NCBI GenBank assembly: GCA_043818395.1
Contig: JBDRFZ010000030.1
Coordinates: 10,704-74,703, forward strand
Direction of reading: 5' to 3'
Length of the DNA stretch: 64,000 bases
Origin: Patescibacteria group bacterium
Lineage (GTDB): Bacteria; Patescibacteriota; Patescibacteriia; 2-12-FULL-60-25
Shown here one piece after another: positions 25,448-46,955 of this stretch. Every line of letters begins with the position of its first letter. Position 1 is the first letter of the stretch. The notes beneath the pieces are model-generated. The model had not been told where the DNA came from and searched no databases. It saw only the letters and a list, made by a program, of their open reading frames with translations. Made by a program: the position numbers and the translations under genes.

Positions 25448-27134
25448 ACCGACACTTAAATACACCATGTCCCTAAATATTTTGGGACCTCTGGGGACCC
25501 TCCACGCTAAAGCATCATGTTAACCATTACACCCGGCTGAGCACAGGACCCTCCAGAGACAGGGAGTCGTCGCTTGGCCAAGAGCCAGGTTTTTTTGTCA
25601 AAAAAAGAGGTAGATGATGATGAGGATCTTAAATGGATTTTCATCAGCGTCTGTCTCACCTGACCCGCACCGAATGTACAGGGGAGTAGCAGACCGGACC
25701 TCGACAATAAAATTGTTACGATGATGATAGAAAGTCATACGTACAAGGCATAAGAACCATATTCGCGATCAACAAGAGTTCCGATCGCGAATGCAATTGA
25801 TAGTAAAGTACACCTTAAAAAAAAATTAAACGAACCGTCCGGTTTTACCCCGCGATTTCCTCATTCGAATCGTGGTTCCGGATGGTCGAAGCACGAAAGG
25901 GCGTACGGTGGATGGCTAGGCAGTAAGAAGCTGATGAAGGACGTGGCAGCCTGCGAAAAGTCTCGGGGAGGTGGCAAGCAACCTGTGATCCGGGAATGTC
26001 CGAATGGGGCAACCCAAGTCGATGAAGTCGACTTACCCGTAACTGAATACATAGGTTATGTGGAAGGCACCTGGGGAAGTGAAACATCTCAGTACCCAGA
26101 GGAAAAGAAAAAAAGGAAATTCCAGCCCTAATTTCTGGTCGAGTCTCCGATCTTTGATCGGATGTGCTCGCAGAAATTAGAGCTGGATAATATTCCGTGA
26201 GTAGTGGCGAACGAAAGCGGATCAGTCTAAATCGTTTATGTGAGCTTTTACACCGAGTTGGACGCAAGTTTGACCGCGGGTAGGAGTGAAGGGCTTGGGC
26301 CGTCGCATATTCGAAGTTGTGGGCGGAAGCGTCGATTCCCCAAGGGATCGGCGCGTAATCGGAAAAAGATAATCGAATTCGCTGGAAAGCGGAACCAAAG
26401 ACGGTGATAGTCCGGTAGGTGAAATTTTTTTCCATGCGCGTGTTTCCGCACCAAAGTACTATGGGGCTCGAGAAACCCTGTAGGAAGCAGCCGCGACGAT
26501 GCGGCAAGACTAAATACTTCTTCTGACCGATAGTGAACAAGTACAGTGATGGAAAGCTGAAAAGCAGCCCGGGAGGGCGATGAAATAGTATCTGAAACCG
26601 TACGCTTACAAGGAGGTGGAGCCGAGCTTTGCTCGGTCACACCGTTCCTATTGAAGAATGAGCCGACGAGTGAGCTCTACGTTGCTTTGGGTTAAGTTCT
26701 TGCGGGAACGGAGCCATAGTGAAAGCGAGCCTTAATAGGGCGTTTTTGTAGCGTAGACTCGACCCGAAACCCGGCGATCTAGCCATGACCAGGATGAAGT
26801 CCCGTTAGTTCGGGATGGAGGTCCGAACCCACGAGCCGTGCAACACTCGGGGATGAGTTGTGGCTAGCGGAGAAATTCCAATCGAGCTGGGTGATAGCTG
26901 GTTCTCCCTGAAATAGATTTTGGTCTAGCGTTGATTAATAGCGTTGCGGGGGTAGAGCACTGAATGGGGGGCGGGGCGCAAGCTTACGTCTCCTAACCAA
27001 ACTCCGAATACCGTAACGTGTTCCCAACAGTAAGACGATGGGGGCTAAGCTCCATCCGTCAAAAGGGAAACAGCCCTTGATCGCAGACTAAGGTCCCTAA
27101 TTATGTACTAAGTGTGAAAGGTGGTGGGTCGGCT

Positions 27135-27172
<38 letters not shown>

Positions 27173-28028
27173 TAAAGAAAGCGTAACAGCTCACTGGTCA
27201 AGCTGACCTGCACCGAAAACTTACCGGGGCTCAAGTACATAACCGAAGTCGCGAATGTTTTCCGGTTTTTAACCGGAGGGCGTGGTAAGGGAGCATTCGT
27301 AACTGCGCTGAAGCGAAAGGCGTGAGCCATCGTGGAGCGTTGCGAAGAGAGAATGTCGGCATAAGTAGCAAAAAGACAGGTTAAAATCCTGTCCACCGTA
27401 AACCCAAGGTTTCCAGGGCAACGAGAATCGTCCCTGGGTTAGCCGGTCCTAAGGCCAGGCCGAAAGGCGTAACCGATGGATAGCAGGTGAATATTCCTGC
27501 GCTGCCTATAGGTTTCAATGGAGTGACGTGTTCTTGCATTTTTCGAGAATCCCGGAATGATTCTTCGGGCACGAAGGGGCGTGGTATAGGCAAATCCGTA
27601 CCGCATAAACCTCGTTGTGTACGCTAGTCTGCCGCGAGGCGGGCAAGGAAAGAGAATGGGGCACCAAGAAAACCTTCTAGAGTTAACCTGTAGGCATCCG
27701 TACCGTAAACCGACACAGGTGGGTGGGCATAAGTGTGCCAAGGTGTACGAGAGAACCCGTGTGTAGGAACTCGGCAATACAACGGCCGTAACTTCGGGAT
27801 AAGGCCTGCCCAGCTCAGCTGGGCTACAACAAAAGACGCAAACCGACTGTTTACCAAAAACACAGCTCCCTGCTAAACCGTAAGGTGATGTATAGGGAGT
27901 GATGCCTGGCCAGTGTCAGAACGTTAAGAGGAGGGGTCATACCGCAAGGTGGCAGCCCTGAATCCAAGCGCTGATGAACGCCGGCGATAACTATAATCGT
28001 CCTAAGGTAGCGAAATTCCTTGTCGGGT

Positions 28029-28787
28029 GAACAAAGTGTTCCACAAGAAGTGGTCGGACCCTGTAAAAATTACAGGATTAACACTCGCCCGAATCCTGCC
28101 GCGAGGCGGGATAAGCAAACTGACTCATAACGGTGAATCCCACATTCCGACGGACATCGGAACGGGAAATACCGTGGGAACTCTGTATAATACAAAATAT
28201 TATGAAGAGACCCGTAACGACTGACCCGAAAGGGGAGAGCCGATGGACATCGGCTAACACGTCAGCTCTTGTAAGAAAAAAACAATCCAGGGAGACGGCA
28301 TCTTATATAACAGGATTCGTAGATGGCGAAGGAAGTTTCTTGGTTTCGTTTAATCGGCGATCTGGGCTCAAGACGGGCATCGAAGTCCGTCCGAGTTTCA
28401 GTCTAAGCCAACATAAACGCAATCTAAGTATCCTTCAGTCAATAAAAAATTTTTTCAGATGCGGAGGCATTCGTTTTGATCGGCATGATCAGACTTATAA
28501 ATACGAGGTCAGAAGCCTCGGTGATTTATGGAATAAGATCATACCGCATTTCAAGACGATTCCTCTTAAGACATCAAAAGCAAAGGATTTTGAACTTTTC
28601 AAAGAGGTCTGTTCACTCATGCGAGCGAACAGGCATCGTTCAAAAGCCGGTCTTGAAAAAATATTGCGAATTGCCTATTCAATGAATAATATAGGCGCCA
28701 GAAAATATAAGTTGTCAGATCTCCTAAAGATCGTTACAAGATGAAAGTATAGTCTGAACTCTGATGAAAATCAGAGATAACAAATGG
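28029..28787 (+). mobile_element. 23S intervening sequence 1 (intron-like, about 760 nt) carrying a LAGLIDADG ORF
   Basis: The conserved exon sequence CTTGTCGGGT stops at 28028 and resumes as AGTTCCGACCCGCACGAATGG at about 28788. By recalled E. coli numbering this is roughly position 1930. Junctions are accurate to about 2 nt. Confidence 0.75.
28202..28744 (+). CDS. single-motif LAGLIDADG homing endonuclease
   Basis: YITGFVDGEGSFLVSF motif. About 180 aa from MKRPVTTD, although the listed ORF allows an earlier start at 28133. Lies inside the 23S insertion. Confidence 0.85.
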   Translation: MKRPVTTDPKGESRWTSANTSALVRKKQSRETASYITGFVDGEGSFLVSFNRRSGLKTGIEVRPSFSLSQHKRNLSILQSIKNFFRCGGIRFDRHDQTYKYEVRSLGDLWNKIIPHFKTIPLKTSKAKDFELFKEVCSLMRANRHRSKAGLEKILRIAYSMNNIGARKYKLSDLLKIVTR

Positions 28788-29303
28788 AGTTCCGACCCGC
28801 ACGAATGGCATAACGAGTTTGCGACTGTCTCCACATGGGACTCGGTGAAATTGCAAGTGGGGTGAAGATGCCCTGTACGCGTAGTCAGACGAAAAGACCC
28901 CGTGAAGCTTTACTACAACTTGATATTGGGTCGCGGCTTTTCATGTTCAGAATAGGTGGGAGCCTTCGGGCAACAGTGAGATACCACCCTTGAACTGACG
29001 CGATTCTCGATCCCTATCCGTGAATCCGGATGGGGAGACAGTATCTGGTGGGTAGTTTAACTGGGGCGGTTGCCTCCTAAAAAGTAACGGAGGCGTTCAC
29101 AAAGGTCAGCTAGGCGCGGATGGAAATCGCGCTGATTCCGCAATGGGATAAGCTGGCTTAACTGCAAGACCAACAAGTCGAGCAGATGCGAAAGCAGGAC
29201 ATAGTGATCCGACCGTACGATATCGGACGGCGGAAGCTCAACGGATAAAAGCTACTCCGGGGATAACAGGCTGATCGCGCCCAAGCGTCCACAGCGACGG
29301 CGC

Positions 29304-29344
<41 letters not shown>

Positions 29345-29375
29345 TAGAAGCTCCCAAGGGTTTGGCTGTTCGCCA

Positions 29376-29419
<44 letters not shown>

Positions 29420-30186
29420 AAAGATCGTGCTGTCTATAAATTCGACTATATGCTGGAAACTCTGGTTTGACTTCCAATTAGGAGTTGGAGTCTAAAGAAT
29501 CTCATGCTACAGGTTATAATAAAAAAATTATGACACGTAAAAAAGCATTGAGTGCAGACAATCAGCAGGGAAGATTACATCATCGTCTTGAACCATGGTA
29601 TGTCAGTGGATTTATTGACGGCGAAGGCAGTTTTCATATCGCGATTTATCAAGATCAAATAATGAAAACTGGCTGGAAGGTTATTCCAGAATTTCATGTC
29701 TCGCAAAGAGTTTCGAGCCGGTGCGTCCTTGACGCACTTGTAAGATTCTTTAAATGCGGTTATGTGAAAATGAATCACCGATTGAATCCGAAAGATGTTA
29801 CCTATGTATATGTAGTAAGAGATCGAAAAGATTTAGCGACAAAAATCATGCCTTTTTTCCGCCGGTATAAGTTACAAACAGAGAAAAAAGAAGATTTTAA
29901 AAAGTTTTCTCAGATTATCGAGTTGATGTTAAATGAGCGTCATCGAACGTCTGTCGGACTAAAGCAGATCATAAAGATCGCATATTCTATGAATGGTTCC
30001 GGCCGTTATCGAAAACGACCAAAAAAGACGATTTTATAAAACCCTCAGAGACTATATGTCGAAAGCCGATATGCATCGGTTAAGATATAGTCCGAACTGC
30101 ATGGCGACATGCAGAGTCCGACGGAAACGTCGGATCGCCACGGAGCGAAATCAGATTATTGATGTGGTTTGCGAAGTAACAATGTG
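29420..30186 (+). mobile_element. 23S intervening sequence 2 (intron-like, 767 nt) carrying a LAGLIDADG ORF
   Basis: The exon GTCGTGAGACAGT ends at 29419 and resumes as TCGGTCTCCTGTCTAC at 30187. This lies within the peptidyl-transferase-centre strand, near E. coli position 2600 by recalled numbering. Confidence 0.8.
29530..30039 (+). CDS. single-motif LAGLIDADG homing endonuclease
   Basis: YVSGFIDGEGSFHIAI motif. About 169 aa from MTRKKALS. Lies inside the second 23S insertion. Confidence 0.85.
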   Translation: MTRKKALSADNQQGRLHHRLEPWYVSGFIDGEGSFHIAIYQDQIMKTGWKVIPEFHVSQRVSSRCVLDALVRFFKCGYVKMNHRLNPKDVTYVYVVRDRKDLATKIMPFFRRYKLQTEKKEDFKKFSQIIELMLNERHRTSVGLKQIIKIAYSMNGSGRYRKRPKKTIL

Positions 30187-30664
30187 TCGGTCTCCTGTCT
30201 ACTACGCGCGTGGAATATTGAGAGGGCAAATCTCTAGTACGAGAGGACCGAGATTTACGAACCTCTAGTGCACCAGCTGTCCCACCAGGGGCACCGTTGG
30301 GTAGCTACGTTCGGCGCGGATAAACGCTGAAAGCATATAAGCGTGAAGCCGTCCTCAAGATTAATATTCATTATGAGAGCCCTCCGAGACGAGGAGGTTG
30401 ATAGGCCGTATGTGTAAGACCTGCAAGGGTTTTAGCAGAGCGGTACTAATAGCTCCATGCTTCGACCATCCGGGATTACGATATCCAAAATCCGTAAAAT
30501 GATTTTGCGTATCACAATCCGGATATGGTTAGAAAAATTTTAAACGTGTACTTACATCAAGGTATGCCTTGTACGTACGACTTTCGATCATCAAAATGTG
30601 AAGCTTTTAACTTGCAGGTTACAGGCCTTATCCTTCGGCGATTATTCGTGATTTTTCATGGATA

Positions 30665-30785
30665 TCCGCCGGTGGCTTAAGCGGCAGTGTCACACCTGTT
30701 CCCTTTCCGAACACAGAAGTTAAGCCTGCTAGCAGCGATGGTACTTGGACCCAACCCGGTCCTGGAAGAGTAGCCCGTCGCCGGA
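30665..30785 (+). rRNA. rrf: 5S rRNA
   Basis: CCGAACACAGAAGTTAAGC and GATGGTACTTGG...CCTGGAAGAGTAG blocks. The terminal helix is TCCGCCGG pairing with TCGCCGGA. Confidence 0.9.
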
Positions 30786-30795
30786 CTAAACAGAT

Positions 30796-45082: not shown

Positions 45083-45478
45083 TCAATTCCTTGCGAACGG
45101 ATCTATGGCCAGGATATGTTTAGCATCCTTTTCTTTGATAGCTTTATTGGATAAAGCGGCATCTATAAGCGCATTCACTTTATTATCTTCTTTTCTGATA
45201 AGAGAGACTAGGTCGCCCTTTAAATCACCAAGTTTGTCGTCCAGATAGTCTTTGGTGACCATAGTCGCTTCTATTTTATTAAATCGCTTATCAATTTGTT
45301 CAAACCGCCCGTCAATCTGCTCGAATCGCTTATCAATTTGTTCAAACCGCCCATCAATCTGTTCGAATTTACGATCGATTAAAGAGAAACGATTATCAAC
45401 ACTACCGGCAAAATCGTTTATAGCATCGAGCAGATCATGGTTCGTCGGTTCCTGATTCATATATAACAGAGCTATCAC
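45083..45478 (-). CDS. coiled-coil repeat protein (IDGRFEQIDKRFEQ tandem repeats, VTKDYL motif)
   Basis: 131 aa. The 42-bp repeat unit is duplicated at about 45283-45370. Composition is AT-rich. Same architecture as 34107..34676. Confidence 0.6.
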   Translation of the reverse strand: MIALLYMNQEPTNHDLLDAINDFAGSVDNRFSLIDRKFEQIDGRFEQIDKRFEQIDGRFEQIDKRFNKIEATMVTKDYLDDKLGDLKGDLVSLIRKEDNKVNALIDAALSNKAIKEKDAKHILAIDPFARN

Positions 45479-45499
45479 GGTTAAATAATATAAGCAAGA

Positions 45500-45862
45500 T
45501 GTGGATAGATGTGGATAAGAAAATAATACATGTTATGTTATAATTTGCTCAATGAAGCGAGGAAAAATAAAAAAACGTCGTATATCCGTAGCTCGGATAA
45601 TAGAAAACGAATTCGGCAATGTGAATCAGGATTTAAATTTTTGGCTGCATCATGTTTTGCATTGGCATTTATTATTGGCGGTTTTGATTATCTTCCTCTC
45701 ATATAACTATTTTAAATAGGGGCTACGTATCTAAATGATTATCCGTCGAAAGATCCTTCATTTCGTCGAACTTCATTCAGGACGACGAACCAGTAGAAAT
45801 TATGTTAATCCGTAGAGATTCGATTATGTAGGTTATCCACAGGTTATGAAAGGTTATCCACA
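45500..45862. promoter_or_regulatory. DnaA-box cluster (candidate oriC or DnaA-regulated region)
   Basis: TGTGGATAG at 45500-45508 (1 mismatch), TGTGGATAA at 45510-45518 (exact), and TTATCCACA at 45833-45841 and 45854-45862 (both exact). Degenerate boxes such as TTATCCGTC lie at about 45739. The surrounding intergenic DNA is AT-rich. Confidence 0.5.
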
Positions 45863-46160
45863 TTGCACCCAGCGATGTTTTTTATTTATGTTGAGCCAAT
45901 AATTTGGGTTTTTGTTATTTGTACTACAATGTATTTACGAAGTTCGCCATCGTTCTTTAATACCCACTTTCAAAAAGCGGCGAGCCTCAAAACCCGAAAA
46001 AAAATACGGGTAAAAACAAAAACACAAAAACCAGATCGTTCTTGCCGCAGCCCAGACAAAAATTCTGGGACGCGGAAATGATACGGTCTGGCAAATACGA
46101 TTTTCTGTTGACTTGATTTTTAAGGTCGTTTTTAGAACGAGGGTGTATAATATTCGATAT

Positions 46161-46955
46161 ATGAGACGTACAAAATCAACTTCTTCAACAAATTCGCGCA
46201 CCGAAAATGTCGAACCCATCCCAGGTACTGTAAAAGGAAGTACGAAAAATTCACCACTTGTCGTAGTCATTATAGCCGTAGTACTTGTCACGGCTGTTAT
46301 ATTAGGCGTAAAGAGTCTTTGGCTATCGAATACCGGGAAAAGTTCATTTACCCAGGATCAGACCCAGGCTTCCACGTCAGAAGGAATTCAGGCATTGATC
46401 AGTATGGTGGCAAAACACATAAGCGTTAAAACTGACGAAGATCCGACCGTGGCTACAATTCAAGATCCGGATCTTTTAAGAACTCAGAATCCTGTTTTTT
46501 ATAAAGAAGCGGAAAATGGCGATAGACTATTGGTTTGGTCCGATAAAGCTGTTTTATATTCCGTGACCAAAGATCGTTTACTTTATGTTTTGCCGATAAA
46601 TTTACCGCCAGCACCGGAAAGCGACACGCAGGTTTCTACGACAACCGGGAATTCTTCCGATAATGAGCAGGAATCGGCAACCATAGAAGTCAGGAATGGA
46701 ACATTAACAGCCGGTTTAGCTAAAACCGTAACCGATAAGCTTAAAAAAGCAGGTTTAAACGTTTTACAGCCTGGAGACGCCAAGTTAAAAAATTATACAT
46801 CTACGATTATCGTGAAGAATTCTGATAATGTTTTTTCGCAAACTGTTTCAACTCTAACATCCTTAACTGGAGGAAAATTAGAAGCCTTACCTGAAGGCGA
46901 AAAAGTCAGCACGGCCGATATTTTGGTTATCGTCGGAAGTGATTTTAAGGATTAA
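46161..46955 (+). CDS. LytR_C (LytR/CpsA/Psr C-terminal) domain protein with a transmembrane anchor
   Basis: Transmembrane helix (LVVVIIAVVLVTAVILGV) and a C-terminal IEVRNGTLTAGLAKTVTDKLKKAGLNV...TIIV typical of LytR_C domains. Confidence 0.65.
   Translation: MRRTKSTSSTNSRTENVEPIPGTVKGSTKNSPLVVVIIAVVLVTAVILGVKSLWLSNTGKSSFTQDQTQASTSEGIQALISMVAKHISVKTDEDPTVATIQDPDLLRTQNPVFYKEAENGDRLLVWSDKAVLYSVTKDRLLYVLPINLPPAPESDTQVSTTTGNSSDNEQESATIEVRNGTLTAGLAKTVTDKLKKAGLNVLQPGDAKLKNYTSTIIVKNSDNVFSQTVSTLTSLTGGKLEALPEGEKVSTADILVIVGSDFKD

Follow-up and report, generated by a model that had tools for sequence, protein, structure and literature searches.

When several perfect DnaA boxes are found close together on a contig without dnaA, the question arises whether they mark the chromosomal replication origin or serve a different purpose. 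We addressed this question for an AT-rich intergenic region in the genome of a Patescibacteria group bacterium. The window, meaning the whole stretch of DNA that was analysed, comprises 64 kb (C30:10704-74703, where C30 is one of the contigs) and belongs to a fragmented assembly of 1,085,659 bp, which consists of 47 contigs and is 94% complete. An earlier note on this DNA had proposed the boxes as a candidate oriC directly beside a GC-rich island and, as a fallback, as elements serving a promoter. For comparison, genomes of relatives were used, which carry the names Patescibacteria or Candidatus Uhrbacteria. These names, the small genome, a 23S rRNA gene split by LAGLIDADG genes and a 5S rRNA gene located separately assign the organism to the CPR.

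DnaA boxes in the window and in the assembly

The scan of the window for DnaA boxes yielded the following sites, which can be grouped into two pairs:

45510-45518 (-), 45833-45841 (+) and 45854-45862 (+): exact TTATCCACA boxes, all there are in the 64-kb window
45500-45508 (-): DnaA box with one mismatch, CTATCCACA
45500..45518 (-): pair 1, CTATCCACA and TTATCCACA in reversed orientation; it ends 20 nt upstream of the -10 element of a micro-ORF and lies over the -35 position
45833..45862 (+): pair 2, composed of two exact TTATCCACA boxes with a spacing of 21 bp and co-oriented with transcription; conserved element of the module described below

Thereby, the three exact boxes and the one-mismatch box were all confirmed at the positions given in the earlier note, and together they span 363 bp. 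The AT-rich surroundings were found as described (26–38% GC), and so was the arrangement as two close pairs, which are tandem repeats: pair 1 is AGATGTGGAT in tandem duplicate with a spacing of 10 bp, pair 2 is AGGTTATCCACA in tandem duplicate with a spacing of 21 bp, and the distance between the pairs is 314–347 bp. A further sequence listed as a degenerate box, TTATCCGTC, has three mismatches and was given no weight. In dinucleotide-preserving shuffles of the 64-kb window, the mean number of exact boxes was 0.36 and three or more were reached in 0 of 100 shuffles. A chance cluster was rejected (0.36 expected versus 3 exact boxes), and the view that three exact boxes in one gap are striking holds also for the assembly, in which the ~360-bp stretch is the top cluster with a box-cluster score of 11 versus 4 for the runner-up.

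The whole assembly (47 contigs) contains 15 exact boxes, 11 of them outside of ORFs of at least 90 aa, and in six relatives exact boxes were in ~4- to 16-fold excess over the reversed control. These genome-wide counts fit a small putative DnaA regulon. A canonical DnaA of full length is encoded in the genome (541 bits versus TIGR00362); its gene is absent from the window, as had been noted, and was found on contig C1.

Pair 1 sits inside a 73-bp divergent promoter gap between the micro-ORF and the gene of a coiled-coil protein. It was not found upstream of the micro-ORF in any relative compared and is, judged from this comparison, specific to the source lineage. It makes the locus the strongest predicted DnaA-binding site of the genome, and it is because of this lineage-specific pair that the locus resembles an origin.

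A conserved module with a leaderless micro-ORF and a candidate small RNA

BLAST searches with the 682-bp gap against 40 relatives were uninformative for synteny; they matched only a dispersed repeat of 38 nt and, by chance, one site upstream of infA in genome G005. When 80 loci with homologues of the PHP gene were compared, synteny was mostly absent, and the arrangement of micro-ORF and LytR_C gene was kept only in locus L011 (genome G004). There, a leaderless micro-ORF is located upstream of LytR_C and PHP genes, its product aligns with that of the 55-aa ORF of the window, and 5 nt beyond the micro-ORF stop there is an exact DnaA box. In genome G089, the micro-ORF, two exact boxes with a spacing of 21 bp, a hairpin with T run, GTTGAGCC and TACAAT were found, and the non-coding stretch after TACAAT is alignable with positions 45925-46035 of the window. 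The full module is composed, in this order, of a leaderless micro-ORF, one or two DnaA boxes, a hairpin with T run, the hexamer TACAAT, an RNA of ~170 nt and usually a LytR_C gene, and it is kept in ~19 genomes of one Patescibacteria (CPR, Uhrbacteria-like) family. In the window, the module and its flanking genes comprise, apart from the boxes and the RNA, the following features:

45083..45478 (-): gene of a 131-aa coiled-coil repeat protein, divergent from the micro-ORF, with a host-like GC content of 39%
45536..45544 (+): extended -10 element TGTTATAAT, 7 nt upstream of the ATG; the mRNA is predicted to be leaderless
45552..45719 (+): micro-ORF coding for 55 aa; the product is basic at its N-terminus, contains the motif DLxFWLxHVxHWH and has a transmembrane helix at the C-terminus
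45749..45786 (+): insertion of the 38-nt dispersed repeat, located after the micro-ORF stop and before the boxes
45860..45888 (+): hairpin ACATTGC-ACCCA-GCGATGT with T-rich tail, overlapping the last box
45925..45930 (+): TACAAT, a -10-like hexamer 62 nt downstream of the last box, kept as TACAAT or TACACT
46144..46955 (+): promoter element TGTATAAT and gene of a LytR_C-domain membrane protein (ATG at 46161; PF13399, E = 7.6e-11)

The suspected leaderless 55-aa membrane micro-ORF behind TGTTATAAT turned out to be a member of a conserved family. Homologues of 49–73 aa are encoded at the same position in 12 related genomes and share the motif V-E-x-D-L-x-(Y/F)-W-L-x-H-x-x-H-W-H-x-L-L, a basic N-terminus and a hydrophobic helix at the C-terminus; in the alignment (A5), positions M1, W31, H34 and W38 do not vary. 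In most of them, TGnTATAAT is followed by the ATG after 6–8 nt, and the mRNAs would therefore be leaderless. No Pfam match was obtained for the 12 family members searched. Of 5.8 billion protein clusters searched with a profile, only 18 matched, all of them hypothetical proteins from CPR/Uhrbacteria. The divergent coiled-coil gene has a paralogue on contig C14 and was not found beside the module in the relatives.

A co-oriented box with at most one mismatch is present in 18 of 19 loci and is exact in 15, compared with a chance expectation of ~0.009 per locus (80-nt window, one strand). It is located upstream of the hairpin and downstream of the micro-ORF stop (or of the upstream gene); in the relatives, the distance from the stop codon to the box is ~5–25 nt. 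In one genome (G108), the RNA occurs but no box could be recognised. A single box is usual among the relatives, one or two are present at most loci, and double boxes are spaced by 10, 21, 21, 21, 21 and 22 bp. The hairpin occurs at the same place in the relatives, with covarying stems and a loop of the yAACnCA type, and the one at 45860-45888 is likely the terminator of the predicted micro-ORF transcript.

From the last box to TACAAT or TACACT, the distance is 62–64 nt in 14 of the 17 measurable loci. The other three have 73, 83 and 84 nt, which corresponds to the standard gap plus one or two helical turns, so that the argument from phasing comprises only three independent indels. The sequence of the spacer between box and hexamer is poorly kept except for the ability of the hairpin to fold, and the fixed spacing could partly reflect a constraint from this intervening hairpin and not the geometry of DnaA and RNA polymerase. 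For TACAAT, we infer a promoter role from position, conservation and downstream terminators; no evident -35 or TGn element was seen at the locus. The fallback reading of the earlier note, boxes serving a promoter, is upheld by the comparison, which also extends it: pair 2 is kept in ~19 relatives, and its distance to what appears to be a promoter element is fixed and follows the helical phase.

Downstream of TACAAT, the candidate RNA is supported by a covariance model (R1), shared folds and covariation in its first stem:

45937..46104 (+): candidate small RNA of ~170 nt
45942-45948 with 45979-45985 (+): stem P1, closing the C/U-rich loop CGTTCTTTAATACCCACTTT
45992-45996 with 46007-46011 (+): stem P2
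46012-46036 (+): A-rich (A5C)n linker
46031-46038 with 46084-46091 (+): terminal stem
46101-46104 (+): T run of the RNA, 9 nt past the terminal stem

The sequence-only model R1 gave matches in 23 of 127 genomes of the family, distributed over 14 genera, ~19 of which are clear and syntenic, and two weak matches among 400 other genomes of the class. A structured model (R2) was inferior to R1 in genome-wide sensitivity. Single-sequence MFE folds of 19 homologues have a common layout of P1, a second hairpin, the (A5C)n linker and a strong hairpin with T run; the P1 loop of the homologues comprises 30–50 nt and is C/U-rich (CGCTCTTT...CCCACCCA). P1 occurs in the compensatory forms TTCGCC/GGCGAA, TCCGCC/GGCGGA, TTTGCC/GGCAAA and AACGCC/GGCGTT, and furthermore as CGATCG/CGATCG, CACC/GGTG and GCGCC/GGCGC. 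MAFFT alone left the 3′ arm of P1 out of register; therefore, a covariance model was built from five in-register sequences, and only syntenic loci were used, with four hits in coding DNA excluded. In the resulting alignment of 16 distinct syntenic sequences, which was fitted to the model and thereby favours the structure, 91.4% of the P1 cells are paired, both partners vary in six of seven pairs, and covariation scores 0.489; shuffles gave 0.160, with none of 500 reaching the observed value, and slid partners did not exceed 0.130. Searches of Rfam with the gap and the RNA gave nothing above E = 2.

In at least 13 relatives, the RNA has at its end a strong hairpin with a T run behind it, and in at least 13 genomes it is located directly upstream of the LytR_C orthologue. 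In the source genome, the T run is 9 nt off the stem, so read-through into the LytR_C gene is possible, and the RNA may there be a leader of this gene.

Proposed control of the module by DnaA and other roles of the boxes

On the sequence comparisons described above, we consider it probable that the locus is a DnaA-operated control region of a micro-protein/small-RNA module which is native to one Patescibacteria family. The most likely mechanism would be DnaA-dependent control of the promoter of the RNA. It is favoured because of the fixed rotational register of the 9-mer, which is expected of a DNA-bound regulator touching RNA polymerase or a partner and is not expected of an origin or a titration site. 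DnaA would be bound ~80 bp (and ~101 bp) upstream of the RNA start on one face of the helix, where it would activate or repress the RNA promoter, and the RNA level would follow DnaA availability and, through it, replication status. The lack of TGn and -35 at the -10 element suggests that the promoter depends on an activator. Pair 1, over the -35 position, would probably repress both the micro-ORF and the divergent gene; pairs 1 and 2 together could support looping, and the four sites may titrate DnaA as a side effect.

Sda of Bacillus subtilis is a small checkpoint protein of ~50 aa with a DnaA-regulated promoter. The locus shares with the DnaA-box clusters outside oriC of B. subtilis, the DBCs, that intergenic high-affinity boxes are located off oriC but origin-proximal, beside promoters and with a product of ~50 aa. 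It differs from them in that the apparent target is a structured RNA, with the box ~80 bp upstream in helical register and behind a leaderless micro-ORF, and in that the host belongs to the CPR and most relatives have one or two boxes. For B. subtilis, the function of DnaA as a transcription factor at non-oriC box clusters is established, as outlined in PMC3245932 and PMC4447404. The novelty here is not DnaA as a transcription factor or the DBC, which are known, but the two small genes, which were previously undescribed. As to the RNA, Caulobacter CcnA is, in the account of PMC8959179, a small ncRNA tied to CtrA, a master regulator of the cell cycle. The module would also place a candidate small RNA under a proposed master regulator of replication, although this would be DnaA instead of CtrA and the two RNAs have no similarity in sequence or structure.

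More tentatively, we put forward as a possibility that this CPR family uses DnaA as a face-of-helix transcription factor for a structured RNA and a leaderless membrane micro-protein with a His/Trp motif, both upstream of a LytR_C gene, which would constitute a minimal circuit from replication status to translation or envelope growth. To our knowledge, most known cell-cycle regulators are absent from CPR organisms, and we know of almost nothing on how replication is coordinated with growth in these ultra-small bacteria. A phased predicted DnaA site together with a new RNA and a new micro-protein offers a cheap and concrete entry to the coupling of replication and growth in the CPR, and one RNA family and one micro-protein family are added to its uncharacterised inventory.

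The boxes might also have as their main role the sequestration or inactivation of DnaA after initiation, with transcription being secondary, as in datA or a DBC of the B. subtilis type. In E. coli, datA is a non-origin cluster of consensus boxes about a tenth of the genome away from oriC, and it acts by IHF-dependent DnaA-ATP hydrolysis and not as a promoter element. The locus is similar to datA as a cluster of consensus boxes off the origin and, according to the positions in relatives, in its distance from oriC, which is likewise about a tenth of the genome. The distance of the module from dnaA is 112 kb in G098 and 116 kb in G089, and that of the LytR_C orthologue is 90 kb in G016, 128 kb in G005, where the LytR_C locus lies within one replichore, and 154 kb in G076. 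Thus, in five relatives the module or its LytR_C neighbour is located 90–154 kb (~8–14% of the genome) from dnaA and would be duplicated early. Judged from these relatives, the locus is in the predicted origin-proximal tenth of the chromosome and well off the origin, a position at which a dosage or titration effect of the datA or DBC kind is possible as a secondary role.

For titration as the main role speak further the four sites of high-affinity type within 363 bp, the top cluster of the genome, and the six DBCs of B. subtilis, which, as outlined in PMC3245932, restrain initiation and in some cases also regulate their neighbours. Nevertheless, we regard it as unlikely, since most relatives have a single box, which would be a poor sink and, in difference to datA, is too low a number for a dedicated one, and since the box keeps a strict helical register to a promoter-like element, which indicates a transcriptional function.

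Very improbable, in our assessment, is that the 9-mer is read by another DNA-binding protein, or as a motif at the RNA level in the 3′ UTR of the micro-ORF, with the match to the DnaA consensus being a coincidence. Such a reading would account for the box abutting or overlapping the RNA hairpin in several genomes; it is opposed by the perfect consensus match in 15 loci, by the canonical full-length DnaA of the genome and by the enrichment of the same 9-mer genome-wide, mostly in intergenic DNA. Also, doubling at 10, 21 and 22 bp is a property of a protein on duplex DNA.

Location of the replication origin

As a chromosomal oriC, the cluster would allow DnaA to oligomerise on both pairs and to open the AT-rich DNA that lies between the pairs or next to them. 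Since consensus boxes are nowhere in the assembly clustered more densely, the cluster invites this reading, and it shares with a canonical oriC the tandem consensus boxes at whole helical turns and the AT-rich DNA. Moreover, the boxes next to dnaA (TTATCCACT, TGTCCACA and TCTTCCACA) are weaker than those of the window. Strand composition, however, points to a different contig. The cumulative GC skew of the 47 contigs has a deep V only on C1. This V reaches a depth of 804, with its lowest point at 27.6 kb, and has a flat floor between 14 and 36 kb that includes dnaA (32.9–34.2 kb), which is located at C1:32875-34227 in the gene order rnpA-rpmH-dnaA-dnaN. Almost all contigs are monotonic with |skew| values of 0.04–0.14, indicating a strong strand skew in the genome. 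On C30, the skew is positive from end to end including the box cluster (V depth 11), so there is no skew switch. The clearest inverted V was found on C19, which is a candidate for the terminus. A search of Rfam with the non-coding stretch at C1:20.5–23 kb gave no match.

A basal unwinding system consists of a DnaA box, DnaA-trios and an AT-rich element (PMC8287927). Following these rules, we searched for cores in which a box with no more than two mismatches is followed, after a spacer of up to 16 bp, by three or more DnaA-trios. The best of 346 candidates genome-wide is located in the dnaA-dnaN spacer at C1:34418 and reads TCTTCCACA-GGAC-CTA CTA CTG CTA TTA CTA-ATTTTTTATATC, with an AT-rich stretch after the trios. 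This core search detected no CTA trios downstream of any of the four boxes of the window.

In the complete genome of relative G005 (1,032,900 bp), the sampled skew is negative at ~468–904 kb and positive elsewhere. Scanning of the region from 926 to 938 kb placed the flip from negative to positive between 929–932 and 932–935 kb, at the dnaA-dnaN spacer, which contains an exact box (dnaA at 930,901–932,268). In G089, the homologous module is located in a stretch of constant skew, and no skew switch was found at dnaA across the 322-kb contig, which is without effect on the conclusion for the source genome; in G098, the skew around dnaA is too weak for a conclusion.

From the skew and the unwinding core, the true oriC of the source genome is predicted to be at dnaA-dnaN on C1, and we consider an origin at the box cluster of the window highly improbable. 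The locus deviates from a canonical oriC not only by lacking a trio array, a skew switch and linkage to dnaA and dnaN, but also by its flanks: the DNA between the pairs is the conserved micro-ORF and that after pair 2 is the covarying RNA gene. Furthermore, the relatives have one or two boxes there, in two of them more than a hundred kilobases (112 and 116 kb) from dnaA. The candidate oriC of the earlier note is rejected, with the sole GC-skew minimum of the assembly and the best unwinding core both at dnaA on C1. Two observations had been named there as speaking against an origin. A skew minimum elsewhere is what we found; a better box cluster beside dnaA was not found, and the dnaA-linked boxes are degenerate. 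Because of this degeneracy, box counting misleads in the source genome. For annotation, this means that a dense cluster of perfect boxes is insufficient for calling an origin and would here misplace oriC, and that box counting in the style of Ori-Finder risks the same error in other CPR genomes with degenerate dnaA-linked boxes.

Similarly far-fetched is an oriV or maintenance site of the adjacent GC-rich mobile island with plasmid-like DnaA boxes: the cluster lies near the island and pair 1 is lineage-specific, but pair 2, the micro-ORF and the RNA occur in relatives at island-free loci, the GC content is host-like with 26–41% from 45083 rightwards versus 62% in the island, and neither a rep gene nor an initiator gene was found next to the cluster. 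The island was correctly described as lying nearby, although it does not directly abut the boxes, as the gene with host-like GC content at 45083-45478 lies between. Since the flanking GC content is host-like and relatives without the island have the module, the island is a neighbour and not a part of the system.

DnaA boxes around dnaA in this genome and its relatives

Outside the window, a second pair of DnaA boxes was found on C1, the contig of this genome carrying dnaA, at a distance of 11 kb from that gene:

C1:21480-21509 (locus L221), boxes TTCTCCACA and TTATCCACA, 21 bp apart

The pair is followed 74 nt downstream by a TATTAT hexamer, corresponding to the usual gap of the module (~63 nt) plus 11 nt, and precedes a stretch of ~880 bp (region C1:21374-22251), in which neither an ORF of at least 100 aa nor an Rfam match was detected. 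This stretch may represent another DnaA-controlled non-coding RNA. Several origin-proximal DnaA-box clusters seem to be typical of the family: in the complete relative G005, 9 of the 21 exact boxes are located within about ±50 kb of dnaA (909-1009 kb), and in G062 a three-box cluster (C4:41726-41889) lies 9 kb from dnaA. A weak DnaA box with identical surroundings (TTATTAACA...CTATTGCTACTA) is present both at the start of C1 (position 162) and at the end of contig C2 (position 3887), and because of this identity the sequences suggest that the two contigs overlap or adjoin.

Cumulative GC skew was positive throughout contig C6 (322,346 bp; loci L165-L181) of G089, a relative carrying a module homologue, irrespective of gene orientation, and over this length no skew switch was found at dnaA (273.7 kb). 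Despite the missing switch, the dnaA-dnaN spacer of G089 contains a DnaA box followed by CTA trios. Either the origin in this genus is located away from dnaA, or the region was relocated recently.

Alternative block upstream of LytR_C genes

In five loci of family relatives without the module RNA (L108, L113, L115, L116, L117), the same position upstream of LytR_C is occupied by another conserved non-coding block, possibly an analogous element or a replaced one. Its parts are:

DnaA-like box (TTATnnACA)
GTGGTGGG motif
terminator hairpin
TTGTnCACA motif, directly upstream of the LytR_C promoter

Dispersed repeat and rRNA genes

A dispersed 38-nt repeat (consensus AAAGATCCTTCAyTyCGTCrrACTTCrTTCAGGACGAC) has at least four copies in this genome and was also found in several relatives (G013, G019, G008, G022):

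window 45749-45786, an insertion that separates the stop codon of the micro-ORF from the DnaA boxes
C35:6291-6328
C25:3808-3845
C22:13592-13629, with a further exact DnaA box ~130 bp away

The 23S rRNA gene in the window exceeds the model length by ~660 nt, and two LAGLIDADG ORFs are located in this region:

25885-30786, 23S rRNA gene to 5S gene
28133-28744, LAGLIDADG endonuclease ORF inside the 23S rRNA gene
29485-30039, second LAGLIDADG ORF, between the 23S and 5S genes
30668-30786, 5S gene
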